Origin: Acetobacterales bacterium
Lineage (GTDB): Bacteria > Pseudomonadota > Alphaproteobacteria > Acetobacterales > Acetobacteraceae
Direction of reading: 5' to 3'
Length of the DNA: 50,337 nt
NCBI GenBank assembly: GCA_038229175.1
Contig: JBBROR010000001.1
Span: 1-50,337, forward strand
Shown: positions 5,998 through 50,337 of the stretch, piece by piece
Numbering within the stretch: the stretch's first letter is position 1
Layout of the letters: the number at the start of each line of letters is the position of its first letter
Notes under the pieces: generated by a model
Told to the model about the DNA's origin: nothing
Databases searched by the model: none
Seen by the model: the letters and a program-made list of their open reading frames with translations, nothing else
Program-made: the position numbers and the translations under genes

Positions 5998-6100
5998 AAT
6001 TGTGATGACACAATCAACAAAAATAATTTAAATAAGTTGACGCAGTAAGCGATATTTAATGTAAAATGTCATTACTGAGTCGATTTCAAGGAGAGTGAAA

Positions 6101-6502
6101 ATGTTTAACGTTGTTCAAATGCCAGAAATTAACAGCCGCAAATTCCGCGTCATCAAGGGCCAGGTGTCCGCGTCCGGTCACACGGTCGGCGCCTTCGATC
6201 TGATCGCAAGCGACCTCGATATCGTGGAGGCCCGCAACATCAAGACCGAGCTGTGCCACGCCCACCACGCCGGCGCCGTGAGCCTGCAGGTACTGCCTTG
6301 CTTCGAGGACGAAGGCGAAATGATCCCCCAGCACTTCGGGCCGGACACGGACACCGAATTCTGGTGCGTGTACGAGTGCTACCAGGACGGCACCGTGAGC
6401 GTGGTTGACGACTTCGGCAGCGCAAGCGACGCCTACGACCGCGCCGAACTCCTGGCCAAGGGCCTGGGCATCGAGGTCGTTGCGGCCGAGTGGGTCGCCT
6501 AG
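6101..6502 (+). CDS. Hypothetical protein, 133 aa from ATG 6101; first gene of a 4-gene accessory operon
   Basis: AAGGAG 7 nt upstream of ATG and an AT-rich promoter-like region upstream. Its stop abuts the next start codon. Confidence 0.6.
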   Translation: MFNVVQMPEINSRKFRVIKGQVSASGHTVGAFDLIASDLDIVEARNIKTELCHAHHAGAVSLQVLPCFEDEGEMIPQHFGPDTDTEFWCVYECYQDGTVSVVDDFGSASDAYDRAELLAKGLGIEVVAAEWVA

Positions 6503-6990: not shown

Positions 6991-7716
6991 ATGATTCACA
7001 CGTTGTTAGAGCCTCTTTTTCAGCCCATCATCGACCGTGATGGGAACGTCTACGCCTACGAGGCATTGATGCGGTTGCGCGGCGGGGCGGAAGTTAGCCC
7101 TGCCAGCATGGTGAAGCGCTGGGAGCAGACCGGCTTCATCAAAATGGCGGACCTCGCCATGCTGCGCCGGATTGCGGAGCAGCTGGCCGCCAGCGGGACC
7201 AGGCCGCGCATCGCGGTCAATGTCTCCATCGCCACCGTGGAGGCCGCCGGCGACGAGTACATGCAGGCCCTGATCGAGCTGGCCCCGCATGCGCGCCGCC
7301 TGATCGTGGAGCTGACAGAAACGGCCGCCGTCACGAACGCGGCAGCGCTGCGCAGCTTTCACCGCGCTTGCACCTTGAACCGCTTCATCGTCGCCCTGGA
7401 CGATTGCCGGCCAGGCCATCCCTACGGCACGCGGGCCTTCATCGACAACTTCCGTCCGCACCTTATCAAGATCGACGGCGAATACCTGCAGCAGTGCCAC
7501 CAGGACGGCCAGCTGGCCGCGATCCGCGAGCTGATCGAGGCGGCGCACCGCCGCGACGCCCGCGTGATCGCCGAGTACGTCAGCACATTGGAGCTGCAGG
7601 AGTTCGCTTTCTACCTCGGAGCCGATTACGTCCAGGGCTTCGTGCTGGGGCGGCCGGCGCCCTTGCTGTCACTTCATGGAAGCGTGTACACGCATCCGAT
7701 TGTCATCAACGTCTAA
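6991..7716 (+). CDS. Stand-alone EAL-domain protein (putative c-di-GMP phosphodiesterase), 241 aa
   Basis: EAL signature residues are present: FQPI, YEALMRL, AVNVS, VELTE, ALDDC, KIDG, AEYV, QGFVLGRP. Strong SD (CAGGAGG). Confidence 0.8.
   Translation: MIHTLLEPLFQPIIDRDGNVYAYEALMRLRGGAEVSPASMVKRWEQTGFIKMADLAMLRRIAEQLAASGTRPRIAVNVSIATVEAAGDEYMQALIELAPHARRLIVELTETAAVTNAAALRSFHRACTLNRFIVALDDCRPGHPYGTRAFIDNFRPHLIKIDGEYLQQCHQDGQLAAIRELIEAAHRRDARVIAEYVSTLELQEFAFYLGADYVQGFVLGRPAPLLSLHGSVYTHPIVINV
7682..7693. promoter_or_regulatory. GCGTGTACACGC palindrome, copy 1 of 3
   Basis: 12-bp perfect palindrome preceded by ATGGAA. It lies 40 nt upstream of ATG 7733. Confidence 0.5.
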
Positions 7717-13539: not shown

Positions 13540-13740
13540 ATGCCAACATTCAACCAAGTTCAAAAGGCGCTCGATAACTGCATCAAGGCAGAGCCGACTA
13601 TCGACTTCCAACTGTCCAAGGATGCGAGCCAGCTGGGAACCGTCATCGGCCTGATGATCCACTTCAAGGAAGACGAGCGCGCCCTGGAAAACTTCACGTC
13701 CTCGCAGCAAGCCGTGTACAAGCGCTGGGAGTCGCAATAA
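13540..13740 (+). CDS. Hypothetical protein, 66 aa
   Basis: GAGG upstream. Its stop overlaps the next start (TAATG). Confidence 0.5.
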   Translation: MPTFNQVQKALDNCIKAEPTIDFQLSKDASQLGTVIGLMIHFKEDERALENFTSSQQAVYKRWESQ

Positions 13741-14162
13741 TGCCGGTCGCCGATCTGTTCCCCGAAACCCTCGGGGAGCTGGGGCCAATCGTCGCCTACG
13801 AGAGCAAGGACTTTTGCGACCAGTACGGCAATCCTCGGATTGTCGTTCGGCTGGTGCCGAAGTGGGACGACAAAGCCGGCTTGTGGACGGTCGGCTGGTT
13901 CTGTAATGTCGAGAACGCCGTAGACGAGTGGTTCCCAGGTGCTGGCACGCCGGCAAATTATCCCTGGTATCGCACCCAGGACCAGCCGGCCGCGAAGCAG
14001 CTGGCCGTCGCCTGCGCCACGGCCGCACGCGCCGTCAAATTCGTCTTGCTGCAGATGCTCGCGTATACCGACTCGGCCGAGGTCGGGGCCAATACGCGGC
14101 GCATCGAGGCGCAGCTGGAAGACCAGGCGCGTCGCTGGTTCCTCGGCGAAGACACGATTTGA
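13740..14162 (+). CDS. Hypothetical protein, 140 aa
   Basis: Translationally coupled to the upstream ORF. Trp-rich. No family recognised. Confidence 0.55.
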   Translation: MPVADLFPETLGELGPIVAYESKDFCDQYGNPRIVVRLVPKWDDKAGLWTVGWFCNVENAVDEWFPGAGTPANYPWYRTQDQPAAKQLAVACATAARAVKFVLLQMLAYTDSAEVGANTRRIEAQLEDQARRWFLGEDTI

Positions 14163-14176
14163 CCTTTGAGAAAAGG

Positions 14177-14201
14177 AAAGGCCCGCTACTCGCGGGCCTT
14201 T
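14177..14201. terminator. Stem-loop terminator
   Basis: aaaggcccgc-tactc-gcgggccttt, a 10-bp stem followed by T residues. Confidence 0.65.
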
Positions 14202-14292
14202 CTACGTCAACAGCTGCCACGCCCTACGCCGAACAAGCCCCGGCCGATCAACCTGGCCCGCCCTTGCCCTCCGGGTTGCCTGCGGCAATTCT

Positions 14293-14373
14293 CTGTCCCG
14301 CCGCCCCGCGTTGTTTGTATGTGAAAACACATACACGCGAGGGGCAGACAAACAAACACGGCCCCGGCCGGCG
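14293..14373 (+). repeat. Structured intergenic repeat, copy A of 3
   Basis: ctgtcccgcc..gcgTTGTTTGTaTGTGAAAACACATACACgcgaggggcagACAAACAAACAcggccccggccggcg. Nearly identical to copy C at 41988-42065. Confidence 0.85.
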
Positions 14374-14384
14374 CGCCGACAGCC

Positions 14385-14655: not shown

Positions 14656-17600
14656 TCAGCGTGACAGCTGCTTTTGCTTCTGCTGCTCGGCTTCCTTGTC
14701 GGCGACCTGGCCGCGACCGTTCTTGTATTGAACGGTCACCACCTGGCCAGGCGTCGGCACCTTTTCAAGGTCGCGCACCTGGTGCACCACGGCCGCCCGC
14801 TTGCTGGTCGCTTGCGTCGCGTGGTAGCCCTCTACCCCCAACACCTCCCCGGTATGCCTGGTATTGGGGCCTGGTTGCTTTACTTCCGCGCCCTCCCCCA
14901 GCTGCTGGCGGGCGACGCCGGTGGCACGCTCGCGGCTTTGCTCGACCGCCTGGCCGAGCGCCTTCTCGACCTGGGCCTTGACCGCCGGCAGGCCCTCATG
15001 CACATGCAAGTCGTTGAAATCGGAGAGCTTGCCCGCCACCTTGAACTCCGGGAAGGCGACGCCTACCTGGTGTTTTTGGGCGGCGGCCGTCGCCTTCTCG
15101 ACCCCGACGTTCTGCTGCGCGTGCTTGTCGTTGTCGCCCATGATGAAAATCGGGCTGGTCGGATGGCGCGCCTTGATGGCGCCCACGACCGCATCGAGGT
15201 TGCCAGAGTCGAACGCCACGGCGACCGCCTTGCCGGTCGCCTGGTGCAAGCTGGCGCCGGTCGCGTAACCTTCCGCCACCAGAACCTCGGCGCCTGGCTT
15301 GATTTCGCCGATCAAGTGCATGTTCCCCGACTTGCGGCCGCCCTTCTCGAACATCTTGGCCGCGCCCTCGGCCGGCGGGATCGACTGCACCGACCACAGC
15401 TTGCCGTCCACGTCGCGCACCGGCACGACCAGCTTTTCGCCGTCGAACTTGACGCCGTGGGCCGCTACCTGTTTGCGCGCCAGGTAGGCATTTTCACCAG
15501 CTGGCGGCGCGTCAGGCAAGCGGTCGAACTTCGCGGTCGCCTTCGTGCTGGCCTTCGCATGCTGCTCGGACAGCTCGGCCGCCCGCTGCTGCTTGACGAT
15601 CTGCGCCTGGGCGGCCAGCTGCGCCTGCTCTTCCTGGGACAGCTGCGCCCCGCTCATGGTCCAGTTCTCCTTCGAGCCACTTGCGAAGTTCTGGATATGG
15701 CCGCTCGGCTTGCCATCGAGGTAGCCGACATACGCGCCGTCGCGGTTGCCCGCCTTGCCTTTGGCCACCGGCACGCGCTGCAGCTTACCGTCCATCACCG
15801 GCTCATCCTTCAATTCCAGGCCGGCGGCCTTCAGCGCCTTGGCGAATTCCACTTTCGGATCGAGGTTCTGTTTAAGCTCGGCGTCCTGGGCGACTTCGCG
15901 CTTTGGTAGCCACTTGTCCAGCTTGGCCAGGTCCGCGCCTGGCGGTGCGTACCAGGTCTTCGCCCCCTTGTCCCATTTGGCGCCGGCGTCGCTCGCCTCG
16001 TTCTTGTCGCGGAACGGCACGGCAAGCACGGTGCGCTCGCCGGACTTGTCCGGCGCCGGCCGCTCATCGACCGACCGCACCGGCGCCGGCGCCGGCCGCT
16101 CCTGGTCGGGCTTGGGCAACCACTTGGCCAGCGGCGCCAGGTCGGTCCCAGGCGGCACAAACCACTCCTTGGCCTCCTTGTCCCACTTCGCACCGTGTAC
16201 CTTGGCCGCTTCCTTTTCCTTGAAAGGCACGTCCAGGACGGTCCTGGCGGTCGCCAGGGCGCGATCCGGCTCGACCAGGCTAATCGGCCTGCCCTTGCTC
16301 GGATCGTCGCTCAGAGGGCCGCCGGCTACGACTTCCTGGCCAACGGCCGGCAGCTGGCGGAAATCCATCTTGTGAAGGGCCACGGCCTCTTTCTCGCCGG
16401 TCTGGACGACGAAGTGGTGTTTCGATTCCGCGATCACCACCCCGCGCGCCGGCTGATCGCCATCGACTACGGCGAATCGCTCCACTTCGCCAAGCTTCGC
16501 TTTCACGCGGCCCGCAAGCTGGCTAAAGTCAGGACTACTGAATGCATCGACGCTTTCTCGCACCAGAGCGCCGAATTCCGGCGTATTTCGGTCTGGTACG
16601 TCGTTCGGCCGCAGTGCCGATTCCGGGGCTGTCCTGGCGGTCGCCAGGGCGCGATCCGGCTCGACCAGGCTGATCGGCCTGCCCTTGCTCGGATCGTCGC
16701 TCAGAGGGCCGCCAACGACTATTTCCTGGCCAACGGCGGGCAGCTGGCGGAAATCGAGCTTGTGGAGGGCCACGGCCTCCTTTTCGCCGGTCTGCAGCAC
16801 GAAACTATGCTTTGACTCGGCGATGACAACGCCGCGCACCGGCTCTTCGCTGGCCAGCATGCCGAAGCGGGCGCCCTCGCCCAGCTTCTGCTTCACCTGG
16901 CCTTCGAGCTGGTGATAGTCGCCGCTGTCGTTGCGCTCGGCGATGCTTTGCCGAACCAGGGCGCCGTATGCCGGCGTCCCACGGTCTGGAATGTCGTGCG
17001 GCCGCAGACCCTGGGCGAGCGCCGGCGCCTGGTCCACGTCCCGCGTGCGGTCGCGGTCCAGCTGCAGCACGTAGTCGGTGATCTTTTCCGCGTCCCTGGC
17101 GGCCCGGAAAATCTCGTTCTTGTCCTCTTTGAGGACGCTTACCCAGGATTTGACATACGCGGCATGCTGGCCGGGATCGTGCGGGATGCCCAGCTTGTCG
17201 GCCATGAAGTAGCTCGACAGCTCGGCCCGCAGCTCTTCCTTGGCATATTCGGCGCTACCGAACCCACCACCGAATTCGCGCTTGAGGCGCGATTCGTGGC
17301 CGGTCCAGTGGCCCAGCTCGTGCAACGCGGTCGAGTAGTAGGCCGCCTGGTCGGGAAACTGACCCTTGGGCGGCAAATGGATTTCGTCCCGCGATGGGCT
17401 GTAGAACGCACGATCGTTCTGATCGTGGTGGATTTTGGCGCCGGACGAATCAAGAATTCTTTCGGCGCGCTCGACCGGATTCCAGTCGTGCTTCCTGGGC
17501 GCCTTGTCCAGCTCGGGCACTCCATCCATTTGCTGCGCATTGAAGACAACGGCGCGGAATACTTCCGGCCGCTCAAGCCGGACATTGACCGTCTTCTGCT

Positions 17601-17940
17601 TGCCGTCGTCGCCCAGGATCGGGCGGCCCTTGTCGTCCACCGCAGGCCGCTCTTCGGCCATCTTCCAGTATTCGATGAGCGTGCCCTTCTCACCTTTGCG
17701 CACTTGCCAGCCCTCGGCCGCCGCCTGCTTGTACGTCGCCCATCGAGGATCATTTTTGCCCTGCATGGCCAGGTACAGGGAATTAGCGCCCCGATACTCC
17801 TTTTCCGTGGTCGGATTGTATGGCAAGCGGCCAATCCCTTGCGCTGCATCCCACGGTTTTTGCCAGGGCGCCGTCCCGGCTTCCAGCTGCTCTATCAGCT
17901 TGTCGGTTAGCGCCTGGCGGTAATCGTTTCCTTCGGCCAT
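14656..17940 (-). CDS. Multidomain ArdC-like antirestriction/ssDNA-binding plus zincin domain, two tandem 130-aa repeats, two DUF5710-like repeats, Toprim DNA primase and a C-terminal beta module; 1094 aa
   Basis: AGGAGG SD. ArdC-N motif LIEQLEAGTAPWQKPW. Metalloprotease motif ALHELGHWTGH. Repeats VPFKEKEAAKVHGAKWDKEAKEWFVPPG and VPFRDKNEASDAGAKWDKGAKTWYAPPG. Toprim block VLVAEGYATGASL...IFIMGDNDKH. Confidence 0.85.
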   Translation of the reverse strand: MAEGNDYRQALTDKLIEQLEAGTAPWQKPWDAAQGIGRLPYNPTTEKEYRGANSLYLAMQGKNDPRWATYKQAAAEGWQVRKGEKGTLIEYWKMAEERPAVDDKGRPILGDDGKQKTVNVRLERPEVFRAVVFNAQQMDGVPELDKAPRKHDWNPVERAERILDSSGAKIHHDQNDRAFYSPSRDEIHLPPKGQFPDQAAYYSTALHELGHWTGHESRLKREFGGGFGSAEYAKEELRAELSSYFMADKLGIPHDPGQHAAYVKSWVSVLKEDKNEIFRAARDAEKITDYVLQLDRDRTRDVDQAPALAQGLRPHDIPDRGTPAYGALVRQSIAERNDSGDYHQLEGQVKQKLGEGARFGMLASEEPVRGVVIAESKHSFVLQTGEKEAVALHKLDFRQLPAVGQEIVVGGPLSDDPSKGRPISLVEPDRALATARTAPESALRPNDVPDRNTPEFGALVRESVDAFSSPDFSQLAGRVKAKLGEVERFAVVDGDQPARGVVIAESKHHFVVQTGEKEAVALHKMDFRQLPAVGQEVVAGGPLSDDPSKGRPISLVEPDRALATARTVLDVPFKEKEAAKVHGAKWDKEAKEWFVPPGTDLAPLAKWLPKPDQERPAPAPVRSVDERPAPDKSGERTVLAVPFRDKNEASDAGAKWDKGAKTWYAPPGADLAKLDKWLPKREVAQDAELKQNLDPKVEFAKALKAAGLELKDEPVMDGKLQRVPVAKGKAGNRDGAYVGYLDGKPSGHIQNFASGSKENWTMSGAQLSQEEQAQLAAQAQIVKQQRAAELSEQHAKASTKATAKFDRLPDAPPAGENAYLARKQVAAHGVKFDGEKLVVPVRDVDGKLWSVQSIPPAEGAAKMFEKGGRKSGNMHLIGEIKPGAEVLVAEGYATGASLHQATGKAVAVAFDSGNLDAVVGAIKARHPTSPIFIMGDNDKHAQQNVGVEKATAAAQKHQVGVAFPEFKVAGKLSDFNDLHVHEGLPAVKAQVEKALGQAVEQSRERATGVARQQLGEGAEVKQPGPNTRHTGEVLGVEGYHATQATSKRAAVVHQVRDLEKVPTPGQVVTVQYKNGRGQVADKEAEQQKQKQLSR
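16241..17020. repeat. Intragenic tandem duplication, 2 x 390 bp (130 codons each), inside the primase gene
   Basis: 16241-16323 and 16631-16713 differ at about one base. The remainder of each unit is clearly homologous but diverged. Confidence 0.85.
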
Positions 17941-18804: not shown

Positions 18805-21800
18805 CTAAAACGCCTTATCCGCCTTGCCTTTTTGGCGTGCTTGTTCGCGCTCCAAATCAGCAAAGCGCCAAGTCGCAAGGCGGCGCTGATTAACATCATC
18901 GTTGTTCTTTTCCACCTTCGCCCGCATGCGGTCGCCGGCTTTCAGAGCAACGTCGTTCGGTGCGGGCTGACGAATGCTTGTCAGCTCGCGCCCGGTATCG
19001 ACAACCACCGTCGTGTAGTTGTCTTCCTTCTTCACCAGCAGGACGCGCCCGCTGATCTGGCGGCCTGGCTGCGCGTCCAGATGGCGCACCGGCTTGCCCA
19101 ATTCCCTCGATAGATCGTCAAGCACTTGATCGACTCCTTTCTGTTGTGCTGCTTCCTGCAGCTCGATACCCTTACGCCAAACATTGGCCCTGACCGTAAA
19201 GCTCGGGTCTTTCGGATCGAGGCCGCGCTGTTGCCATACCTGGGCGCGTTCCTGCAGCGCCGCCTGCAGCGGCGCCGACGTGGCCAGCTGCTCCTGCTGC
19301 AGCATCCAGTCGAGCCGGTTCAATTGCCGCGTCTTGATAGCATTGGCTATGTCCTCGCCCGACTCTGCCCACTCCACATTTTTCCGCCAGACCGTGGCCG
19401 CCTTGCCGAAGTCCGGCGCCTGCACATCGACCCCGCGCTGCTTCCAGACCTCGGCGCGCTCCTGGATGGCCAGCGTGACCGGATGGCCAGGCGGCAGCTG
19501 GATCGGCTTGAGCTGCTGCGCCATCAGGTCCAAACGGTTCGGCCGGGGATCGGCGACCATCGCCGGCAGCTGCTCGGGCTTGACGACCGCCGCCATCGCC
19601 TTCCCCTTGGCGTCAACACCGACGAACAGGCTTGCCTGTTCGGCGACGTACTTGTGCTGCAGGCCCAGCGCTTCGAGCTGCAGCGCCGTCAGCTGCTGCT
19701 TGCGGCCGTAGGTTGGAGCGACCGCAATGCTCTCGCGGCCCTTGGCCAGCACGGTCGCCAGCATCGAGCCTTTGCCGTCGAATTCGACAGTCTTCACGCC
19801 GGCGTCCTCGAAATTGAGCCGGTCGTGCGCGACCGCCGATTTCGGCCGCACCAGGGCGCCTTCGACTTCAACAGCGCCGGCGGCCTGCAGGCGGCCAAGG
19901 CGCGCCGCTGCAGCATCGCGGAACGCGCCGGCTACCGTCTTTTTCAATTCCGCCGGCACGACGACCTTGCCGCCTTTGAGCAGTTCGGCATCGAGCAACG
20001 CGGGCGACAGTGCGCGGCCGTACTGTTCGACCCGTTGCGTGGTGCCGAGAACCTTTCCGTCGCGGTCCTTGCGCTCGACCACTTCCAGGGCGACGTATTC
20101 GCCGGCCTTCAGGCCGCCCTCGCCCCGCAGCTTCTGGACCTTCGGCGACTGGTTCAGGTAATGCACCTTCCCGTCGAGGCCTTCGACCATGATGTAAGGC
20201 CGATTCGTCGCCTCATTAAGGCCGGTCCCGACAACCTTGCCGGCGACGCGCTGGCCCAATTCTTTCAGCTCAGTGACGACAAGCGGCGCGCTCGGATCGG
20301 AAATCATTTCCCGATGCGCGAACTTGGTCTTGAGGCGATCCTGGGATACCTGCATTTGGCGCAGCGCCGTTTCGAGCGCCGGCGACAGGCGCCACGACTT
20401 ATTCCCGGTCTTCTCGGCCAGGCCCATGTCGGACAGCTGCACCAGGCGCCGAATCTGGCGAAGCCTGGTATCGCGGGCCTTCTCGCTACCTGGCGGCTCG
20501 CCCTCGAAGCTCACTTCATTGTTCACGGCCCGCTTCTTCAATGAGCGATCAATCTCGGTGAATCGCTGCTGCGCCACTTGCCGATCCAACGACTCGGCCA
20601 CGTCGCGCTCGGAGCGGTAGCCCAGCTCCTTCGTGGCCAGCTCCTGGGCACGAATGCGCGAACCCTCGGCGATGTATTCCGGCGAGATTTCAAGGCTCTT
20701 GCCCTTGTCGTCCATCCCACGGATGGCGACGTGGGCGTGCGGGTGATCGGTGTTGTAGTGATTGGCCGCGACCCACTCCAACTTCGTGCCCAGGTCTTTC
20801 TCCATTTGCTTCATCAGGTCGCCGACGTGCTTGCGCAAGTCCATGCGGTCGCCGAACTCGGGACTGATAATCAGCTTGAACATACGTTCGTCGCCGCCCT
20901 TCTGCCATGCGTTCAGCGTGGCCGAAATCGCCACGCTATGCCCGCCGCTGCCGTACCCGACGCCGCCGGCGTCTAGTCCGCCAACAGCAACGCGATCCGT
21001 TCCAGGTTTGCCGCCACTTCCCCGTCGCACGCGGTCAGCGTCTTGGGTTCCTCGCTGGACCACGATTTCAGATGCATCACCCTGCAGTAGCAATTCACTC
21101 CGTCCGGCCCGCTGAACCATACCGACGCTGGACAGGCTTCGCAGATCGTTGATGGACTTGGCCGAAGGCGGGCTGCCAACCGCTGCAGCGTAGGACTGAC
21201 GTAAGGCGGAAACTCGCCCTCGGTCGTTGAGGTCGGGAGCGGCGCCGTATCGGTCGGCGATGCTATCGCCGGCGCCGGTGCCGGTGTCGCGGTCGCCGGC
21301 GGTGTATCGGTCGGGTTCAGCAATGTCGGATCGCTCATGGTCAATATCCTTTCTCTGTGATTTGATAGACGGGTCGGCCAGCTCGCGGCCGACCTCAATT
21401 TCTGCAAGCAGTTCGGGGCGCTTGTTCAGCTCTTTTTCCTGGGACGATTCGCGCTCGATGTACTTGCCGTGCGCGCCCCACTGGCCATCCCCTTGATTCT
21501 TCGAGTACACCCAGCGGACAGAAACGCGCTGCAGCGGCTTGGCCGCAGTCGCGCCGGCGCCACGCACCCCGCCGGTATTGCCGAGGCGGCCAGCCGCCGA
21601 TCCGGCGGCCGAGCTGCCCCGCTGGCGACTGGACACGCCAGTGCGCCCGCCGCCCCCACCGGACGACGAGCGCAGCATTTGCTTGACCTTCTTGAACGCC
21701 GTGGAAATTTGCTTATCTTTCAAGCTTCCACGGCCGGGGAGTTTCAGCGCGAGGCGAATGTCTTCGCTCTCACGCTCGCCCCCCTTCCCTTTGCCGAATA

Positions 21801-21807
21801 TTCCCAT
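18805..21807 (-). CDS. Conjugative relaxase, VirD2/MOBP-like, 1000 aa
   Basis: Motif I region RVSVRWVYSKNQGDGQWGAHGKYIERE. Motif III HYNTDHPHAHVAIRG preceded by DERMFKLIISPE. Long C-terminal extension. Confidence 0.9.
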   Translation of the reverse strand: MGIFGKGKGGERESEDIRLALKLPGRGSLKDKQISTAFKKVKQMLRSSSGGGGGRTGVSSRQRGSSAAGSAAGRLGNTGGVRGAGATAAKPLQRVSVRWVYSKNQGDGQWGAHGKYIERESSQEKELNKRPELLAEIEVGRELADPSIKSQRKDIDHERSDIAEPDRYTAGDRDTGTGAGDSIADRYGAAPDLNDRGRVSALRQSYAAAVGSPPSAKSINDLRSLSSVGMVQRAGRSELLLQGDASEIVVQRGTQDADRVRRGSGGKPGTDRVAVGGLDAGGVGYGSGGHSVAISATLNAWQKGGDERMFKLIISPEFGDRMDLRKHVGDLMKQMEKDLGTKLEWVAANHYNTDHPHAHVAIRGMDDKGKSLEISPEYIAEGSRIRAQELATKELGYRSERDVAESLDRQVAQQRFTEIDRSLKKRAVNNEVSFEGEPPGSEKARDTRLRQIRRLVQLSDMGLAEKTGNKSWRLSPALETALRQMQVSQDRLKTKFAHREMISDPSAPLVVTELKELGQRVAGKVVGTGLNEATNRPYIMVEGLDGKVHYLNQSPKVQKLRGEGGLKAGEYVALEVVERKDRDGKVLGTTQRVEQYGRALSPALLDAELLKGGKVVVPAELKKTVAGAFRDAAAARLGRLQAAGAVEVEGALVRPKSAVAHDRLNFEDAGVKTVEFDGKGSMLATVLAKGRESIAVAPTYGRKQQLTALQLEALGLQHKYVAEQASLFVGVDAKGKAMAAVVKPEQLPAMVADPRPNRLDLMAQQLKPIQLPPGHPVTLAIQERAEVWKQRGVDVQAPDFGKAATVWRKNVEWAESGEDIANAIKTRQLNRLDWMLQQEQLATSAPLQAALQERAQVWQQRGLDPKDPSFTVRANVWRKGIELQEAAQQKGVDQVLDDLSRELGKPVRHLDAQPGRQISGRVLLVKKEDNYTTVVVDTGRELTSIRQPAPNDVALKAGDRMRAKVEKNNDDVNQRRLATWRFADLEREQARQKGKADKAF
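20973..21338 (-). CDS. Candidate overlapping gene nested in an alternative frame of the relaxase gene; 121 aa, Pro/Thr-rich N half and Cys-rich C half
   Basis: AAGGA 8 nt upstream of ATG 21338. Third-position G/C is higher in this frame than in the relaxase frame over the same nucleotides (hand count). Motif ICEACPASVWFSGPDGVNCYCRVMHLKSW...TACDG. Confidence 0.45.
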   Translation of the reverse strand: MSDPTLLNPTDTPPATATPAPAPAIASPTDTAPLPTSTTEGEFPPYVSPTLQRLAARLRPSPSTICEACPASVWFSGPDGVNCYCRVMHLKSWSSEEPKTLTACDGEVAANLERIALLLAD

Positions 21808-21982
21808 GCACTCACCCCGATGTATTGCGTAAATTATACTCCAAGAAAGACGATTAAAAGCGCTATTTCATAGTGCGTTGCCATGCAATTGATGGGCGTC
21901 GAGGTCGCTAAAAAAAGCAATTTGCGTCATCCTGAAACATGATATATTGAGCGCCTGAATCACCAACTAAGGAGTATCCGCA
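21808..21982 (+). other. Candidate oriT region, with an ATCCTG nic-core-like hexamer at 21929-21934, in the divergent intergenic region next to the relaxase gene
   Basis: gcgtcATCCTGaaac resembles the IncP/Ti-border nick core YATCCTG|Y. AT-rich context. Position immediately upstream of the relaxase operon. Confidence 0.4.
21822..21839 (-). promoter_or_regulatory. 18-nt box variant (GTATAATTTACGCAATAC in gene direction) 14 nt upstream of the relaxase ATG
   Basis: 14/18 match to the traG and trbK-position boxes, in the same orientation relative to the gene. Confidence 0.45.
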
Positions 21983-22249
21983 ATGAGCAGTATCAAGCAT
22001 GACCAGCTGAAAATGCTGGCCGCGAACAGCGGCGTCAAAGGGGTAACGATAGTCGGCGATCCTTCCGGTTTCTGTGTCAATGTTACAACATTGAGCGGCG
22101 ATAAACTGTTATTTACCAAGACTGGCCAGGCGCGCTTCTTCAAGAAAATGGAAACGCTCCTTGACTACCTCAAGAACGAAATTGGTATTGGCAAGGCGAC
22201 GATCCAGTTCGACCGCTGGAACCCTGCACAGCAAGTTCTCAAACACTGA
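21983..22249 (+). CDS. Hypothetical protein, 88 aa; first gene downstream of the putative nic site and upstream of repA
   Basis: Strong SD (TAAGGAG). Lower GC than the backbone. Confidence 0.65.
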   Translation: MSSIKHDQLKMLAANSGVKGVTIVGDPSGFCVNVTTLSGDKLLFTKTGQARFFKKMETLLDYLKNEIGIGKATIQFDRWNPAQQVLKH

Positions 22250-22262
22250 GAGGAAACAAGGC

Positions 22263-23333
22263 ATGAGCGAAGGTCAAACTCCTAACGTGGCAGCAGCTGT
22301 ATCGAAGAAGCTGGACGCGGTAAATGCGAAACTGAAGGTGCGAACGGCCGAAGCGGCAATTCGCAAGTACGTGCCCGAACAATTGCAGTTCTGGCCGGAC
22401 GACAGGCGCGCTATTGCGAACGAATTGGCCAGGTGCGCCCTCTTCCAATGCCGCAACGATAACGAGGCCCGCGAATACCTTGATAACGTCGAGCTGTACG
22501 TGCTGGGCGAAGGCTCGATGACCTACAAGGGCGAGGAACTGCGGACCAAGGACGAAGACCTGTTCGTCACGCTCGCGCACTGTGCCCGCGATCTACCGTC
22601 CGGGAAAATGGTGGTGCGTATCACGAGCAGCGAAATCTGCCGCATGAACGGATGGCGCCAGTCGCAGCAATACTTCAACCTGATCTTTCAATCTGTTCAG
22701 CGCATGAAGGGCGGCGTCATCACCGTGTTTTCGCGGCGCCTGGCCAAGGCACTGAAATGCCAGCGTGCGCTCGATGCCGGCGCATCGGACACCGAACTGG
22801 CGCAGTTGTACGACGAACTCGAAGCCTTCGAGAACGCCGAACGGTCGTTATTGACCTTAGAAGAAAAAGGCGAGGAAGTGGGCGGCATCATGGTTTCGCT
22901 CATCAGCGGCGATCCAACGTTCACCGGCGGCAAGTGCGTTAAAGACGGCATCCCACAGGGCAGTCTGAGCTGGGAAATCACCCTCGACAAAAAGCTTGTA
23001 TCGCTGTTCGCCAGGCCCTACCTGACGCTTGTTGACTTCCAGACGCGCAAGGAGCTGTCAGGAACCGGCAAGCGCCTGCAAGCCTACTACTTGAGCCACA
23101 AGAAGCCGCTCGACGTGAAGCTGCGCAATCTTGAGAAGATGCTAGGCCGCAAAAACAAGTCGCTGGCCGCGCTGAAATTCCAGATCGGCGAAGAGCTGGA
23201 AATTCTGAAGGCCAAGGGCGACATTGAAGAATTCAGCTTCAAGAAATCCGCAGACGGCACGGACTGGCTTGTGTGCGTCAGCCGCGAGAAGAAGGAGCCG
23301 AAGAAGGACCCGAAAAAAGATCCTCCAAAATAA
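22263..23333 (+). CDS. Plasmid replication initiator (RepA/TrfA-like, iteron-binding), 356 aa from ATG 22263
   Basis: GAGAGGA SD. Position immediately 5' of the iteron cluster. Lys/Pro-rich tail. The family call is partly contextual. Confidence 0.7.
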   Translation: MSEGQTPNVAAAVSKKLDAVNAKLKVRTAEAAIRKYVPEQLQFWPDDRRAIANELARCALFQCRNDNEAREYLDNVELYVLGEGSMTYKGEELRTKDEDLFVTLAHCARDLPSGKMVVRITSSEICRMNGWRQSQQYFNLIFQSVQRMKGGVITVFSRRLAKALKCQRALDAGASDTELAQLYDELEAFENAERSLLTLEEKGEEVGGIMVSLISGDPTFTGGKCVKDGIPQGSLSWEITLDKKLVSLFARPYLTLVDFQTRKELSGTGKRLQAYYLSHKKPLDVKLRNLEKMLGRKNKSLAALKFQIGEELEILKAKGDIEEFSFKKSADGTDWLVCVSREKKEPKKDPKKDPPK

Positions 23334-23392: not shown

Positions 23393-23798
23393 GTCATTTT
23401 GAAGAATCGCCCCGCCCCCGGCTGCTCATAATGGAGAATTTTCGCGGCGTAGTTCGCGCCCAGGGCGATGCCCACAAACAAAGGTTTCTATATGCACAAT
23501 GAATTGCGGCCGTGGTTTGTTGTTGGCACTTCAACAAAGCCAATCGCGGACCCAATCCGAGGGCCTGCAAGCGGAATTGATGAGGCCGGCAGACTGGAAA
23601 TATTGCCATGACAGCACTCATAATGGGGGAATCTCTCAAAAGAGCATGGCCAAAGCTTCGACCGCTCATAATGGAAAATCGGCCGCTCATAATGGCGAAT
23701 TGGCTAAAGGCAATTTACTCATAATGAAGAATTTTCTACTCACAAAAAGTTGCTATTGCTCATTATGAGTAATTTTTTCGCTCATTATGAAGAATTTT
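23393..23798 (+). repeat. oriV iterons: about eight direct copies of CTCATAATGRARAAT
   Basis: tcat cores at 23394 (degenerate), 23426, 23618, 23666, 23687, 23719, 23760 and 23782. Several spacings are 21-22 bp. Confidence 0.85.
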
Positions 23799-23890
23799 AA
23801 CAATTGAAAATATTGTTTAAAAACATGCACTTACGGTTGTTTTTGGAGTGACTGAACTGTTTTTGAACTACTTTTAACACTTCTTTTAGG
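23799..23890. other. AT-rich stretch flanking the iterons (probable DNA-unwinding element)
   Basis: caattgaaaatattgtttaaaaacatgcac...ctgtttttgaactacttttaacacttcttttagg in an otherwise GC-rich replicon. Confidence 0.55.
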
Positions 23891-24270
23891 CCGCCGACTA
23901 CGGCCGCGCCCTGGCCTGCATGAGCTGGTTAACCCCACCCCCGGCGCAAGCGCCTCCACCGTGAGGAAATTCTAGGCCCCGAGGGGCCAGACGCCGGCAT
24001 AGCCGGCTTGTTGGCCCCCAGGTACTACACTCCAGGCCCGCAAGCGGGCAAAACAAGCAAAATCAGGGAAGAACAAGATCAAAAGAGGGCGCTACGCGCT
24101 GGGCTTCGCCCTGATTACTCCAAAAGGAGGGCCTGGGAGGCCCCTGCAAGGCGTTTGCAGCTCATACAGGCTACCGCCAGCCGTCCGTGCGCTGGAAAAC
24201 GGCGCCAAGGCCCGCTTATGCGATTTCATGGAAGAGGCACACGAAGGCCGGCGCTTTTGATAAAATGGAG

Positions 24271-24282
24271 GCGTGTACACGC
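24271..24282. promoter_or_regulatory. GCGTGTACACGC palindrome, copy 2 of 3
   Basis: Preceded by ATGGAG. Lies 19 nt upstream of the ATG of the SprT-like gene. Confidence 0.5.
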
Positions 24283-24300
24283 TCTCCTTTGAGGAATGAA

Positions 24301-24960
24301 ATGGCCAAAACTCTGCACGACAACCGCGAAGCCTGGTTGAACCATGTCGCCCGCCAGATGGCGCCCATGTTTGCGAAGCTCGACGCACCGCTGCCCGACC
24401 AGGTGCGGATCGCCATCGGGTTCACGTCCACCGGCAAACGCGGCAAGCGGATCGGCGAATGCTGGGATAACCGTTGCAGCGAAGACGGGCACTTTGAAAT
24501 TTTCATCGTGCCCAACCTGGCCGAGGCGCCGAACATGATGCCGATGCAGGTTGCCGCGATCCTGGCGCACGAGCTGGTGCACGCAGCGGTCGGCATCCCA
24601 GCCGGCCACGGCCCGCTGTTCCGCCGCGTCGCCAAGGGAATCGGCCTTACGGGAAAAATGACCGCGACCGTCGCCGGACCTCAATTCGAGGCGGCCGTGA
24701 AACCGATCCTGGCGCTTGCCGGCCCGTTGCCGCATGGCCGTTTGAACACCGGCGCGCTGCCTGGTGACGAAGAGGGCGAGCCGAAAACCACAGGCCCGAA
24801 GAAGCAGACCAAGCGGCACATCAAATGCAAATGCGAGCGGTGCGGCTACACGGCGCGCACAAGCCGCAAGTGGCTCGACAAAGTGGGGCCGCCGTACTGC
24901 CCGACGCACGGCGAAATGAAAGTGATCGAGGACGAGTCGAACGAGGTGGAGGAAGATTGA
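24301..24960 (+). CDS. SprT-like zinc metalloprotease with a C-terminal zinc ribbon, 219 aa from ATG 24301
   Basis: GAGGA SD. HEXXH motif ILAHELVHAAVG. C-terminal CKCERCGY...YCPTHG. Confidence 0.7.
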   Translation: MAKTLHDNREAWLNHVARQMAPMFAKLDAPLPDQVRIAIGFTSTGKRGKRIGECWDNRCSEDGHFEIFIVPNLAEAPNMMPMQVAAILAHELVHAAVGIPAGHGPLFRRVAKGIGLTGKMTATVAGPQFEAAVKPILALAGPLPHGRLNTGALPGDEEGEPKTTGPKKQTKRHIKCKCERCGYTARTSRKWLDKVGPPYCPTHGEMKVIEDESNEVEED

Positions 24961-24996
24961 TAGGGCAGGGCGGCGAGCTGGCGAGGTCCACCAGTT

Positions 24997-25060
24997 CGCC
25001 GGCCGGTGCCGTGTTTGTTTGTCTTGAATCGCCTGTATGTGTTTTCACAAACAAACAGGC
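24997..25060 (-). repeat. Structured intergenic repeat, copy B of 3 (inverted orientation, diverged loop)
   Basis: The reverse complement reads cctgTTTGTTTGTGAAAACACATACAggcgattcaagACAAACAAACAcggcaccggccggcg. Confidence 0.8.
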
Positions 25061-27805: not shown

Positions 27806-27834
27806 CATTTCTGCGCCTGGTGGTGAAATGGTGA

Positions 27835-27844
27835 CGTGTACACG
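27835..27844. promoter_or_regulatory. CGTGTACACG palindrome, copy 3 of 3
   Basis: ATGGTGACGTGTACACGCtttcgtttg has the same flank pattern (ATGG...TTG) as the other two copies. Confidence 0.45.
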
Positions 27845-28063
27845 CTTTCGTTTGGCTCAAAACGTCTACCAGGCTGTTGACGTGCATGGGGTCGGTTCAT
27901 CGGAAACCCTGGCGCTTGCGCCAGCCGAGGCCGTGGACGAGGGGCGGAAATTTGTTGCTCCAACGAAAACAGCGAAAAACCAACGTCTTACCCCGGAAAT
28001 CTATTCTTAGTGGAACATAAAGAAGTGCTGCCGCTGGTGGTGTTTTTTTGGTTGTTTTGCCTG

Positions 28064-29040: not shown

Positions 29041-29358
29041 ATGAAAAACATTCCAAAGCGTATTGCGGTAATTACCATTGGCGCCCTGGTGCTGATGGTT
29101 GCCGGCTGCTATAAACGCGACGATACGCCGCCGCCAACCGTTTATGACAAACCGGCGACACCAACGCCAATCGAGAAGCCTTCGACCTCAAAAACCGAGC
29201 GCAAGTATTACAGCGAACACCTGGACGAGGCATTAACGACCTGGAAGGGCTGTAAAGAAACATTCAAAACCTTGCCCGAGGCCGAGCGCGCCGATTGTTT
29301 CGCTGCGCGTGACGCCTGGGTTAATCAGCCGTATGTACCGAAAGCAAAAGCACCATGA
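29041..29358 (+). CDS. Small lipoprotein, 105 aa (VirB7/TrbH-like or entry-exclusion candidate)
   Basis: AAGGAG SD. Lipobox LMVAGC. Pro/Thr-rich linker. Confidence 0.65.
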   Translation: MKNIPKRIAVITIGALVLMVAGCYKRDDTPPPTVYDKPATPTPIEKPSTSKTERKYYSEHLDEALTTWKGCKETFKTLPEAERADCFAARDAWVNQPYVPKAKAP

Positions 29359-29608
29359 ACACTAAACCGCACAAAAATGCCAAGGAGCGCGAACTGGCCC
29401 AGCAGCTGGGCGCCGTGATCCTTGCCGCACTCGCCGATCCCGACGTGATCGAGATCATGCTGAACCCGCCGTATGTGCCGAAAGCGAAAGCACCATGAAC
29501 GCTAAACACCGCGACGGACCGCACAACGAAGCCAGGTCACGCCTGGAAGGGAAGCTGGCCCGCGAGCTGGGCGACGTGATCCTGGCCGCCCTCGCCGACC
29601 CGGAGGTG
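29329..29608 (+). repeat. Diverged tandem duplication, 2 x 140 bp, spanning the lipoprotein-3'/trbB-5' junction
   Basis: ccgtatgtaccgaaagcaaaagcaccatgaac (29329) and ccgtatgtgccgaaagcgaaagcaccatgaac (29469). The following trbB-like 5' codons are homologous but diverged. Confidence 0.85.
29355..29498 (+). pseudogene. Chimeric 47-codon remnant: a trbB-like N-terminus fused to the last 10 codons of the lipoprotein gene
   Basis: MNTKPHKNAKERELAQQLGAVILAALADPDVIEIMLN + PPYVPKAKAP. Compare TrbB ...LARELGDVILAALADPEVVEIMLN and the lipoprotein end NQPYVPKAKAP. Confidence 0.6.
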
Positions 29609-41987: not shown

Positions 41988-42065
41988 CTGTCCCGCCCAG
42001 CGTTGTTTGTTTGTGAAAACACATACACGCGAGGGGCAGACAAACAAACACGGCCCCGGCCGGCG
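41988..42065 (+). repeat. Structured intergenic repeat, copy C of 3
   Basis: ctgtcccgcccagcgTTGTTTGTTTGTGAAAACACATACACgcgaggggcagACAAACAAACAcggccccggccggcg. It starts at the base after the transglycosylase stop codon. Confidence 0.85.
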
Positions 42066-42149
42066 AGGGCAACCAGGTCGAGCCGGTACTGTTGCAGATC
42101 GAGCAGCTTCAGGAGGATCGGCCTATAATTGAAATAAAGGAGAAATTCC

Positions 42150-42350
42150 ATGAAGAATTTAGAAAATCTGATACTCGGCGCCGACTTCCGCCAGGGCGCG
42201 AAAGACGCAGTACAAGAGGCCGTCAATGCGGCCAATGCGAAGGGCTTGCCCAAAGCTTACGAGCCGGATTTCTCCCAGGCTAAAGCCCAAGCCGTTGACG
42301 CTCCCCAGGCAGGAACCGCCCAGGAAAAAAAGCCGATGCGCGCAGCATGA
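42150..42350 (+). CDS. Small protein, 66 aa, translationally coupled to the zeta-like kinase (putative antitoxin/partner)
   Basis: AAGGAG SD. ATGA overlap with the downstream gene. No family recognised. Confidence 0.5.
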   Translation: MKNLENLILGADFRQGAKDAVQEAVNAANAKGLPKAYEPDFSQAKAQAVDAPQAGTAQEKKPMRAA

Positions 42351-43273
42351 CGCAAGAGGTCGATGCGCGCGACGCTCCCAGCGTTATTGTTTTTGCAGGC
42401 CCCAACGGTTCCGGTAAATCTACCATTACCAAAGCACTGACCAGGACAGACTTCAAAGGCGAGTACATCAACGCCGACGACATAGCGAAGTCCCTCGAAT
42501 CCCAAATTCCCGATTACCTGCAGCGCAACCTGGCCGCCGCCACCATGGCGGAACAGCGCCGCATTGCCGCCATGAAGGAGGGCAAGGCCTTCGCCTTTGA
42601 AACGGTCATGTCCACGCCCGAGAAGGTGGCGATCATGACCCAGGCCAAGGCCGCCGGCTACGGCGTCGCCCTGGTATTCGTCACCACCGGCGATCCCGAC
42701 ATAAACATTCAGCGCGTATCAAACCGCGTCGCCCTGGGCGGGCACGACGTGGACCCTGTAAAGATTCGGGAACGCTATCACGGCACCATGGGATTGCTGC
42801 CGGCCGCAGTCGAGCATGCCGACGTGGCCACGATCTACGACAACACGCGAGAAATGCCCCTGCAGGTGGCGATCAAGCGCGACAACCAGCTGCAGCTGCA
42901 CAACGACGCGGCCCGCACGCCCTGGGTCGCCGAAAAGCTGGTAAAGCCCTACGTCGAGCGCATGGCGTCGCGCCGTGAGCTTGAAAAGACCTTCGACACC
43001 CTGGCGCTCACCAACCCGTCATCGCTGCCCTCGGTCCTGCGCGACGCGGACGCCAGCCACGGCAAGCAGTACGGCGGCCAGATCGTCGGGCTGACCGACA
43101 AGCACGCGCTGCAGAAAGTGGGCGCAAACGTCTTCGTGCTGCACGACCGTTCCCTGATGGCGCCGAAGGAGCTGCAGGTAGGGAAGCAGGCCACGATCCA
43201 GTATGCCTACTCGAAGGGCAAGATCATCGACCCCGCCCTGGTCAAGCAGCCGACCCGTGGCATCGAGCGCTAA
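42347..43273 (+). CDS. Zeta-toxin-like / COG4185-type P-loop kinase with a C-terminal beta module, 308 aa
   Basis: VIVFAGPNGSGKSTI...INADDIA, FETVMST, RVALGGHDV. The C-terminal GGQIVGLTDKHALQKVGANVFVLHDRSLM...VGKQATIQY is similar to modules in the primase and relaxase. Confidence 0.7.
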   Translation: MTQEVDARDAPSVIVFAGPNGSGKSTITKALTRTDFKGEYINADDIAKSLESQIPDYLQRNLAAATMAEQRRIAAMKEGKAFAFETVMSTPEKVAIMTQAKAAGYGVALVFVTTGDPDINIQRVSNRVALGGHDVDPVKIRERYHGTMGLLPAAVEHADVATIYDNTREMPLQVAIKRDNQLQLHNDAARTPWVAEKLVKPYVERMASRRELEKTFDTLALTNPSSLPSVLRDADASHGKQYGGQIVGLTDKHALQKVGANVFVLHDRSLMAPKELQVGKQATIQYAYSKGKIIDPALVKQPTRGIER

Positions 43274-48763: not shown

Positions 48764-50337
48764 TCAGTCTTCAGGTGGGGAATCTTCAGGGCCGGCCATG
48801 TCTGGCGGCCCGTCGTCGGGTCCATCGTCATCGTCCAGGCCGGCACTCTCGGCCCTCATTGCGGCTTCTACGCCGGCATCGCCTTCGACCGCTTCGTGGC
48901 CATCGGCTTCGGCCTCGGCGTCGAGCGTGGCCAGCTCTTCGTCCGTGTACGTCACCGGCGCTGGCGCCGATGCAGCGACGGCCGGCGCAGCGACGACGGC
49001 AGCGACGGCCGCAACCACGGCCGCCGGCACGACGGGCGCAGCCGGCGCTGCAGGAGCGGGGGAGGGAGGCGCAGCGACAACAGCGGCCGCCGGCACCACG
49101 GCTGCAGCTGCAGGCGTCGCCTCAGCCGCCGGCGACACCACTTCGCCGTCCGGCCGCAAGAACTGATCGGACTGGCCATCGACCGTTACAAAGCCATCGA
49201 CTTCGGCTTTCGGCCTAGCCGCGACCGCGACCTTCGCCAGGGCGGGGTCGCATGGGATCGGCTTTGGCTTCCCGTCGCCGCGCTGGTACAGACGATCCGA
49301 ATTGCGGGGCGGCTTAATTTTCGAGCGGCCGTCAAAAACAGGGTCTTTGAAATACAGGATTTGCTTGCCGTAGATCGGATTAGCGCCGGCGGGCAAAATG
49401 AGCATGTCGCCAGGCCCGAGAATATTCTTGCCGTCCTCGCTTTTCATCGGCGCCGGAATCCGCAGGCACTCGCTGGGATCGAGCAGCGGGCGGCCCATCA
49501 GCTGCTCATTGGCCATCACATGCATCAAGAGCGGATTCAAGCGGCCGCCCGAGTAGCTGCGCGTGTCGTTGCTGACCGTGGCCGTCCCGGTGTACTTCGA
49601 CAGCAGCTCGGCCGTCTCGAATTTATTGGGCGCGTAGGCAATGCGAATATGCGCGTTCGAGATAATGCTTTCGTCCTTGGTGTAGGCCTTGTAAAGCTGG
49701 GTCAGGTCCTGGGTGATGAGGAAGCATTTCAGGCCGTAGCCGGCAATGAAGGCCAGCGCGGTCTCCATCACTTCGAGCTTCCCGAGCGCCGGGAATTCAT
49801 CGAGCATCAGCAGCATGCGATGCTTGTAGCCGGCGACGCTGCGCCCGTCCTGGAAGTCCATGCTTTCCGTGCGCTGGCGAATGATCTGATTGATGAGCAG
49901 CCGAATCAGCGGGCGCAATCGGGCAATCTCGCCTGGCGGAATGACCAGGTACAACGCGACCGGCGTTTCGTAGTTCATCAGATCATTGATGCGGAATTCG
50001 GACACGGCCGTGTTCATCGCCACGATGGGATCGCGGTACAGCGACAGGAACGACATGGCCGTGGACTGCACGCCCGAGCGCTCGTTTTCGCTCTTGTTGA
50101 GGAACGACCTGGCGGACTCCGCAATGACAGGGTGAACCTTCGTCAGGGCGCCGGTAATGGGATCTTCCCATTTGAACTTGCCGGCCGGGTCATGCTCGGT
50201 ATTGAGCATGGATTCGGCCACCTGTTCGATGGTCATGGTCGGATCGCAGAAGAAGCTGACCAGGCCGCGCAAGGTCTTCGCGCCATCCCGGCCGGCGTAC
50301 AGGATATGCAGCAGCGCGGCCGACAGCAGTTCGTGGC
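48764..50337 (-). CDS. traG: Type IV coupling protein, C-terminal part (continues from 1..1027 through the circular junction)
   Basis: Conserved T4CP blocks LMLDEFPALGKLE and LITQDLTQL. Long Ala/Pro/Val-rich region and an acidic tail. The ORF runs off the right edge, and 50197-50337 duplicates 1-141. Confidence 0.9.
   Translation of the reverse strand, partial: HELLSAALLHILYAGRDGAKTLRGLVSFFCDPTMTIEQVAESMLNTEHDPAGKFKWEDPITGALTKVHPVIAESARSFLNKSENERSGVQSTAMSFLSLYRDPIVAMNTAVSEFRINDLMNYETPVALYLVIPPGEIARLRPLIRLLINQIIRQRTESMDFQDGRSVAGYKHRMLLMLDEFPALGKLEVMETALAFIAGYGLKCFLITQDLTQLYKAYTKDESIISNAHIRIAYAPNKFETAELLSKYTGTATVSNDTRSYSGGRLNPLLMHVMANEQLMGRPLLDPSECLRIPAPMKSEDGKNILGPGDMLILPAGANPIYGKQILYFKDPVFDGRSKIKPPRNSDRLYQRGDGKPKPIPCDPALAKVAVAARPKAEVDGFVTVDGQSDQFLRPDGEVVSPAAEATPAAAAVVPAAAVVAAPPSPAPAAPAAPVVPAAVVAAVAAVVAAPAVAASAPAPVTYTDEELATLDAEAEADGHEAVEGDAGVEAAMRAESAGLDDDDGPDDGPPDMAGPEDSPPED
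50197..50337. repeat. Terminal overlap, copy 2 (identical to 1-141)
   Basis: Direct comparison of both window ends. Confidence 0.95.

Follow-up and report, generated by a model that had tools for sequence, protein, structure and literature searches.

A palindromic repeat at operon ends in a lineage of IncP-like plasmids, possibly a REP/MITE-like hairpin or weak terminator module

REPs are mobilized by RAYT Y1 transposases and can act as mRNA 3′ stabilizers, terminators or protein-binding sites. They are chromosomal, occur in tens to hundreds of copies, carry a 5′ GTAG-type tetranucleotide beside a 20-40-nt imperfect palindrome, and co-occur with a RAYT gene. MITEs, such as the Correia/CREE elements of Neisseria and ERIC/IRU, have TIRs, TSDs and a related IS. 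Palindromic sites that recur around conjugative or low-copy replicons include the KorB OB of IncP-1, the dispersed centromeres of N15 and the parS site of P1, whereas the pdif sites of Acinetobacter plasmids are Xer sites that flank exchangeable modules. The ssi signals of RSF1010 (ssiA and ssiB) and of the G4 type consist of a hairpin with a loop and a tail. Here we describe a repeat that shares features with these systems and is carried by an IncP-like plasmid of an Acetobacterales bacterium.

The window that we analysed is a stretch of 50,337 nucleotides corresponding to a whole contig, and the rest of the 3.78-Mb genome bin (91% complete) was used for comparison. Positions 1-141 and 50197-50337 are identical over 141 nt and a T4CP (TraG-like) gene spans the junction, so the window represents a plasmid that is circular and complete at 50,196 bp. 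This plasmid is conjugative and IncP-like, with a TrfA/iteron oriV, an ATCCTG oriT, an ArdC-primase and a Trb/VirB T4SS, located as follows.

14656-17940, minus strand: ArdC-zincin-Toprim-KfrB primase (Pfam)
18805-21807, minus strand: VirD2/DUF3363 relaxase (Pfam)
near 21.93 kb (21920-21940): likely oriT, between the relaxase gene and trfA, with the nick-type motif TCATCCTGA and the IncP-type nick region GCGTCATCCTGAAAC
22161-23333: TrfA (Pfam)
23400-23900: iteron-type oriV directly 3′ of trfA, with ~7 copies of CTCATAATGRARAAT, some of them inverted, followed by an AT-rich stretch
~29.5-42 kb: Trb/VirB T4SS, with a VirB1-like transglycosylase as the last gene (Pfam)
42347-43273, plus strand: zeta-like kinase fused to KfrB (Pfam)

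Because the likely oriT is situated between the relaxase gene and trfA, trfA and oriV fall within the leading region. Further genes recognized with Pfam encode TopoIII, a TraF peptidase, the T4CP, ParA, SSB, a serine recombinase and PspA, and no transposase was detected among the ~50 window ORFs that were scanned. The small proteins of the plasmid include 171-aa and 97-aa products encoded 3′ of parA, RHH-like products at 40.6-41.3 kb and the 66-aa antitoxin. At the head of the T4SS region, a 45-nt direct repeat (29323-29367 and 29463-29507; 89% identical, 140 nt apart, with ATGAAC.CTAAAC in each) looks like the duplicated 5′ ends of two adjacent small genes.

Three copies of the repeat are present in the window.

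14293-14373, plus strand: copy A, whole repeat, including a left extension that begins CTGTCCCGCC
41988-42065, plus strand: copy B, whole repeat, whose first base directly follows the TAA of the VirB1-like transglycosylase gene
24997-25060, minus strand: copy C, inverted, core only

These are the copies that a sequence-only reading of the same DNA had proposed, and their existence is borne out by sub-patterns 24 and 28 nt long, both of which match exactly three times in the window and never in 100 dinucleotide-preserving shuffles; the chance expectation for repeat copies is 0. Core identity (62 nt) is 98.4% between A and B, and 87-89% between C and either of these. Units of ~80 nt are formed in A and B, which alone share the left extension of ~19 nt. 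A covariance model (R1) scores the copies at 98.5 bits (A), 97.6 bits (B) and 89.3 bits (C). A BLAST search with the repeat against the whole 3.78-Mb bin returned no copy besides these three, and the sub-motifs of the repeat, the GC dyad included, are not enriched in the chromosome or the rest of the bin.

None of the copies overlaps a credible CDS according to GC3-based gene calling and Pfam, which agrees with the intergenic location claimed earlier. All of them lie at operon 3′ ends or module borders. Copy A is found 11 nt past the stop codon of an 86-codon gene, the last of the relaxase/ArdC-primase operon (minus strand), and 130 nt past a plus-strand gene (13740-14162), in a convergent gap; the plus-strand gene has a canonical hairpin terminator of its own at 14176-14202. 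Copy B ends ~63 nt 5′ of the -10 box in the promoter of the antitoxin/zeta-KfrB operon. The 115-nt convergent gap between an SprT-like gene (stop at 24960, plus strand) and the parA operon, whose last gene stops at 25076 on the minus strand, is largely taken up by copy C, the sole structured element there. With two copies in convergent gaps and orientations mixed, the orientation of the copies relative to oriV, oriT or upstream genes is uninformative. The ArdC-primase and the zeta-like kinase both end in a fused KfrB domain, and genes of this kind adjoin two of the three copies as well as the copy on a related plasmid (L068, see below), although this could be a coincidence. Separately, the gene next to copy C has a 69% homologue on a Photorhabdus contig.

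The 62-nt core is organized as an 11-nt arm TGTTTGTNTGT, a 25-nt spacer, a matching arm ACAAACAAACA, 1-2 nt, and a GC dyad GCNCCGGCCGGNGC. Its parts are distributed over the three copies as follows.

14312-14322, plus strand: copy A left arm, TGTTTGTATGT, with one A.A mismatch against the right arm
14323-14347, plus strand: copy A spacer, 25 nt (alignment A4)
14348-14358, plus strand: copy A right arm, ACAAACAAACA
14360-14374, plus strand: copy A GC dyad, GGCCCCGGCCGGCGC, followed on the minus strand by GUGUUUGUUUGU
42004-42014, plus strand: copy B left arm, TGTTTGTTTGT, a perfect 11-bp complement of 42040-42050
42040-42050, plus strand: copy B right arm, ACAAACAAACA
42052-42066, plus strand: copy B GC dyad, with a terminator-like flag on the minus strand (42070 to 42053, tail CGTGTTTGTT)
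25047-25057, minus strand: copy C left arm, TGTTTGTTTGT
25012-25022, minus strand: copy C right arm, ACAAACAAACA
24996-25010, minus strand: copy C GC dyad, which on the plus strand joins a flank-derived 10-bp hairpin (z = -2.6) followed by GUGUUUGUUUGU

The sequence-only reading had described an 11-12-bp stem around a 25-nt loop, with a GGCC-rich dyad after the stem. The dyad is present, the spacer measures 25 nt, and the outer arms are perfect 11-bp complements in copies B and C; the stem holds less well in copy A, where the A.A mismatch interrupts it, and it shows no covariation. The mismatched A instead perfects an alternative inner helix, TGTATGTG/CACATACA. All copies conserve the 5′ half of the spacer (GAAAACACATACACGCGA), and variation falls in its 3′ half (alignment A4).

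Three mutually exclusive helices are possible because the arms consist of (TTTG)n and (CAAA)n. One is the outer stem of the sequence-only reading, another uses the same left arm and pairs it four bases further in (GCAGACAAAC), and the last is an inner hairpin, TGT(A/T)TGTG-AAAA-CACATACA. The inner hairpin shares bases with the outer arm, such that both helices cannot form together. A TGTG-AAAA-CACA hairpin had also been noted in the loop; it is indeed there, with 8 bp in copy A, but it is not conserved in the L068 and L086 copies and it competes with the outer stem. In the five-sequence alignment, pairing is maintained at 92.6%, 96.3% and 85% for the three helices in the order given. Compensatory double changes number zero for all three helices (five sequences, three independent lineages), and therefore no fold is established by covariation. 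The covariance-model check proposed with the earlier reading accordingly favors no particular fold on these five sequences. Column 19 of alignment A4 (window positions 14319, 42011 and 25050) is the lone polymorphic base of the left arm and can be A, T or C; the inner hairpin, the outer stem and its shifted form are each perfected by a different one of these variants. Folding z-scores of single sequences range from -0.4 to -2.2 on the forward strand and from -0.4 to -3.3 on the reverse strand, values that are unremarkable for most copies and strands.

The claim that the repeat is not a classical terminator stands for the forward orientation, which has no U-tract, but needs qualification for the reverse strand. 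There, the GC dyad is followed by (G)UGUUUGUUUGU, and a simple consensus terminator scan flags copy B alone. At all four loci the reverse-strand hairpin has a predicted stability of -15 to -29 kcal/mol and ends 0-7 nt before UGUUUGUUUGU, with locus-specific flanks contributing to the hairpin at several of them. When the flank-assisted hairpins are compared with those from shuffled flanks, copy C alone performs better (z = -2.6) and the L068 copy is marginal (z = -1.6), while those of A (z = +1.2) and B (z = +0.2) are no better than shuffled flanks. As in an intrinsic terminator, the reverse strand presents a G+C hairpin and then a U-rich run, with an A-rich run on the other side, right after stop codons. 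However, the U-tract is interrupted (GUGUUUGUUUGU), the stem comprises 4-9 bp in A and B, and the repeat contains ~45 further conserved nucleotides that termination does not need. The other terminators of the plasmid, for example that at 14176-14202, are canonical and in this respect unlike the repeat.

Related plasmids were reached through protein homologues and their contigs, and five repeat sequences are now known from three independent lineages (A, B and the L086 copy; C; and the L068 copy). The close relative L086 (SRR22388261; ~97% DNA identity) has kept copy B with three substitutions, all at positions that vary among the other copies. Conversely, site B is empty in L066/L067 (transglycosylase 85% identical at the amino acid level; L066 is from JGI 3300055082) and in L068 (69%; GCA_040384025.1), despite the same gene order and a conserved zeta-operon promoter in all three. 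L066 carries a 38-codon hydrophobic ORF (MARKKATRILVGLCFLL...) at 2290-2410, exactly at the position of copy B, which identifies the interval from the transglycosylase gene to the zeta operon as a variable hot spot; in L068 this site spans 67 nt only. Site C is empty in L079/L080, where the syntenic gap is 60 nt. A candidate degenerate remnant at this empty site in L079 was discarded as not significant (p = 0.2). The more distant L069, L070 and L082-L085 (~120 kb, including the region 3′ of the ArdC-primase gene) contain no element.

A single diverged copy occurs elsewhere on L068, inverted and 3′ of the zeta-KfrB gene, with 84% identity over the core. This copy has a left arm that pairs perfectly in the shifted register and no longer has the inner hairpin; its GC dyad forms a perfect 16-bp palindrome. 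The L068 contig (6.1 kb) ends 37 nt beyond this copy (6100-6136), which hints at an assembly break at the repeat and at several copies on the L068 plasmid.

The repeat is thus confined to a narrow plasmid lineage in which its positions are not conserved and in which it has been gained, moved or lost. The sequence-only reading would have taken as counter-evidence a complete absence from related plasmids combined with no binding and no transcription; as to the first of these, L086 keeps copy B and L068 has one copy, site B is empty in L066-L068, and site C is empty in L079/L080. The conserved plasmid operator that this reading implied is weakened by the empty syntenic sites in close relatives and by the different location of the L068 copy.

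Copies A and B have been homogenized. These paralogues are closer to each other than the B copy of the window is to its L086 orthologue (95.2% identical), showing that copying or gene conversion has recently taken place within the plasmid. Divergence of the window from L086 amounts to 3.8% in the element, 3.7% in neighboring CDS and 4.7-7.1% in flanking intergenic DNA, which gives no indication of unusually strong constraint on the element over this short time. Of the 62 core columns, 48 show the same base in all three independent lineages. The remaining 14 cluster, six of them in consecutive columns of the spacer's 3′ half (permutation p = 0.0025), and both arms and the 5′ half of the spacer are invariant in all five sequences apart from the column 19 base of the left arm. 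This clustering reflects either sequence constraint on the arms, the 5′ spacer and the dyad, or the youth of the copies.

Searches beyond the plasmid lineage returned no recognized family, in keeping with the earlier remark that the repeat was not recognized as a known plasmid operator, IS end or REP family. Rfam gives no matches at the gathering threshold over the whole window and none on the element at E <= 1. The BLASTN comparison with plasmid and genome databases that had been recommended yields no PLSDB match with either copy A or the L068 variant, and in the bin it recovers A, B and C alone. A pattern scan of IMG/VR gave no true match, and the matches from two scans of GTDB species genomes and one JGI metagenome scan were, on inspection, of low complexity or due to chance. 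A covariance-model search of 864 genomes of the same family and order found no copy. Matches of 24-28 bits on chromosomes of the family were rejected, being GC-rich and inside coding regions (for example, a PEP-carboxykinase-like ORF), as was the Herbaspirillum plasmid NZ_CP103873 (TrfA-related), which has trfA alone in common, a different backbone and no element.

The repeat resembles REPs and BIMEs in being a short, imperfect and non-coding palindrome that occupies 3′ intergenic gaps, often convergent ones, in both orientations, and TIRs and TSDs are absent from REPs as they are from this repeat. It differs in its number of copies, three, all of which are on the plasmid. No GTAG was found next to either palindrome in alignment A4, and a search of the bin for Y1_Tnp (PF01797, Y1/RAYT) gave no match, although control genomes do match; with the bin 91% complete, such a gene may have been missed. 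Two REP-based candidates were consequently dropped, a host REP built from the GC dyad, whose motif is not enriched in the chromosome, and a RAYT-driven REP, which lacks its Y1_Tnp gene. The likeness to MITEs lies in a small, non-autonomous, intergenic and foldable element with possible terminator or promoter signals, and extends to presence and absence at orthologous sites: the window and L086 have a copy at site B that L066-L068 lack, and L079/L080 lack one at site C. Unlike MITEs, the repeat has a very low copy number and no TIRs or TSDs, and no related IS came to light in the Pfam scans of the ~50 window ORFs. Its inverted repeats are the internal 11-nt arms only, the ends of the core (TGTTTGT... 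and ...GGCCGGCG) not being complementary, and comparison of filled with empty sites reveals no direct repeat flanking A, B, C or the L068 copy. Having no TIRs or TSDs, no transposase found on the plasmid, no Y1/RAYT gene found in the genome, few copies and none on the chromosome, the repeat is described as working like these elements and is not filed as a member of either class.

Similarities to plasmid-borne sites are also apparent. In common with the KorB OB, the N15 centromeres and P1 parS, the repeat is a palindromic site in several copies around a conjugative or low-copy replicon, with some copies far from promoters and one just 3′ of the par operon. Nonetheless, its sequence is unrelated to the OB palindrome TTTAGCSGCTAAA, its unit of 62 nt contrasts with the 13-16 bp of that site, and close relatives do not have it at the same positions. 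A direct reading of the element finds neither the IncP-1 OB nor the OA (GTTTAGCTAAAC) palindrome, and Pfam detects no KorB/ParB-HTH protein on the plasmid. Like pdif sites, the copies are short, alternate in orientation and sit at module borders, but they do not have the 11-6-11 architecture of XerC/XerD sites and there is no evidence of exchange. Comparison by eye with CRP, DnaA-box, IHF, Tus-ter, chromosomal parS, attC and Xer/dif sites gave a half-site at most, which is not conserved in L068, and these candidates were set aside. Another palindrome of the plasmid, GCGTGTACACGC, is perfect and occurs three times with conserved asymmetric flanks (7669-7702, 24258-24291 and 27821-27854), once at the start of the SprT-like gene and once in the divergent region 5′ of the ssb and parA operons; it looks like a better candidate for a global operator than does the hairpin repeat.

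While granting that this explanation might well be wrong, we tentatively prefer to regard the repeat as a palindromic, REP/MITE-like module that sits at the ends of operons and functions as a hairpin or a weak terminator. The occurrence on plasmids only, the empty syntenic sites and the moved L068 copy together argue for a lineage-restricted repeat that is gained and lost. Such a non-coding module would have been gained, copied and lost at permissive operon-end sites within one small IncP-like plasmid lineage, and would behave like a plasmid-borne REP/MITE-like repeat rather than a conserved backbone cis-site. From anatomy and position, we infer that its hairpins most likely act at the level of RNA or transcription. 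On the reverse strand, the GC dyad might form a short G+C hairpin followed by (G)UGUUUGUUUGU and thereby serve as a weak factor-independent terminator or insulator. In this orientation, copy A would face the relaxase/ArdC-primase operon, copy C the trfA-oriV-SprT-like unit, and the L068 copy the zeta-KfrB operon, whereas copy B would face read-through from the T4CP operon back toward the T4SS operon. With the repeat read forward, transcripts of the T4SS and parA operons would end in the 11-bp arm hairpin as a 3′ cap.

Several observations sit uneasily with this explanation. Three plasmid-borne copies are unlike the abundant REPs and MITEs of chromosomes. The terminator role in particular is weakened by the G that interrupts the U-tract, by hairpins in A and B that do not surpass shuffled flanks, by the canonical, bidirectional-looking terminator that already exists 90 nt from copy A, and by the lack of a gene immediately upstream of copy B in terminator orientation. 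Moreover, invariant blocks around a six-column variable patch are a pattern expected more of a specifically recognized sequence than of a simple hairpin.

For these reasons of conservation, and because the repeat is restricted to plasmids and copy C follows the par operon, a cis-acting DNA site bound by a plasmid-encoded protein, either a dispersed operator or a centromere-like site, stays a serious if somewhat unlikely rival. The 14-16-bp GC dyad could bind a dimer, with the 11-bp arms and 25-bp spacer forming a second, bent module, a geometry that might recall P1 parS or the dispersed centromeres of N15. Three copies spaced around the circle, and the conservation of sequence beyond what pairing demands (invariant columns in three lineages, with variation confined to a patch), would suit such a site, as would the perfect palindrome of the L068 dyad, the classical centromere position of copy C directly 3′ of the parA operon, and a level of conservation between the window and L068 similar to that of the functional promoter and RBS beside site B. 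Yet the syntenic sites are empty in close relatives that share the backbone genes, the copies mark 3′ ends and not promoters, near-identical plasmids drift at the background rate in the element, and no candidate binding protein is tied to it; the role of global operator, furthermore, already appears to be taken by GCGTGTACACGC. We consider it unlikely, in a related formulation, that the repeat is an undescribed plasmid-specific cis-site for a plasmid-encoded protein, being either a dispersed centromere or insulator site, or an alternating recombination site at module borders that would permit module swaps in the manner of pdif with an unrelated site. In that case, the conserved arms, spacer and GC dyad would serve recognition and would not be relics of an insertion.

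Readings based on recombination, single-stranded DNA priming or a small RNA are less likely than a protein-binding cis-site. A site for site-specific recombination or module exchange, pdif-like in its logic, seems rather improbable. The copies do mark the end of Tra1 (A), the border between Rep/oriV and par (C) and the end of the T4SS (B), and the zeta-KfrB module is flanked on the left in the window and L086 and on the right, in inverted orientation, in L068, such that adding a copy of the L068 type would give orientations alternating as + - + - around the circle. This four-site alternation has a one-in-eight probability by chance, however, and the zeta module of L066 has no flanking copy at all; judged by sequence, the architecture is unlike Xer/dif, res or attC, and the serine recombinase of the plasmid also occurs in relatives that lack the element. 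It is distinctly improbable that the repeat is a hairpin signal in single-stranded DNA, namely an ssi priming site for the ArdC-primase or a loading site for SSB or a helicase after conjugative entry. The plasmid encodes a TraC-like Toprim primase and SSB, a hairpin with a conserved loop and a conserved 3′ tail would match the architecture of known ssi signals, and A and B share the orientation of the strand with the ATCCTG nick motif, but copy C lies on the opposite strand and relatives with the same primase lack the element. Unremarkable folding z-scores on both strands also speak against this function, and similarity is seen neither to the described ssi that could be tested nor to any Rfam family. 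A small RNA gene or cis-regulatory RNA, whether an antisense RNA or an attenuator that exploits the three exclusive helices, is very unlikely. Alternative helices that use the same left arm, and an arm base whose A, T or C state perfects a different one in different copies, speak for this reading; set against it are the absence of a promoter-like site and of a forward U-tract, the missing Rfam match, the lack of covariation, and the absence of the repeat from close relatives. A search for a trans RNA target of the conserved loop found no complementary sequence elsewhere on the plasmid.

If the preferred REP/MITE-like module is only a hitch-hiking palindrome, it would be a minor curiosity, a repeat of this kind found solely on a plasmid lineage and without the usual hallmarks. 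Such a repeat would also be likely to break the assembly of metagenomic plasmids; the L068 contig ends shortly beyond its copy. If a plasmid protein binds the repeat, it would constitute a new dispersed cis-site in an environmental IncP-like clade that is without experimental study. If the module acts as a terminator or insulator cassette, it would show how portable boundaries between backbone modules are acquired by plasmids.
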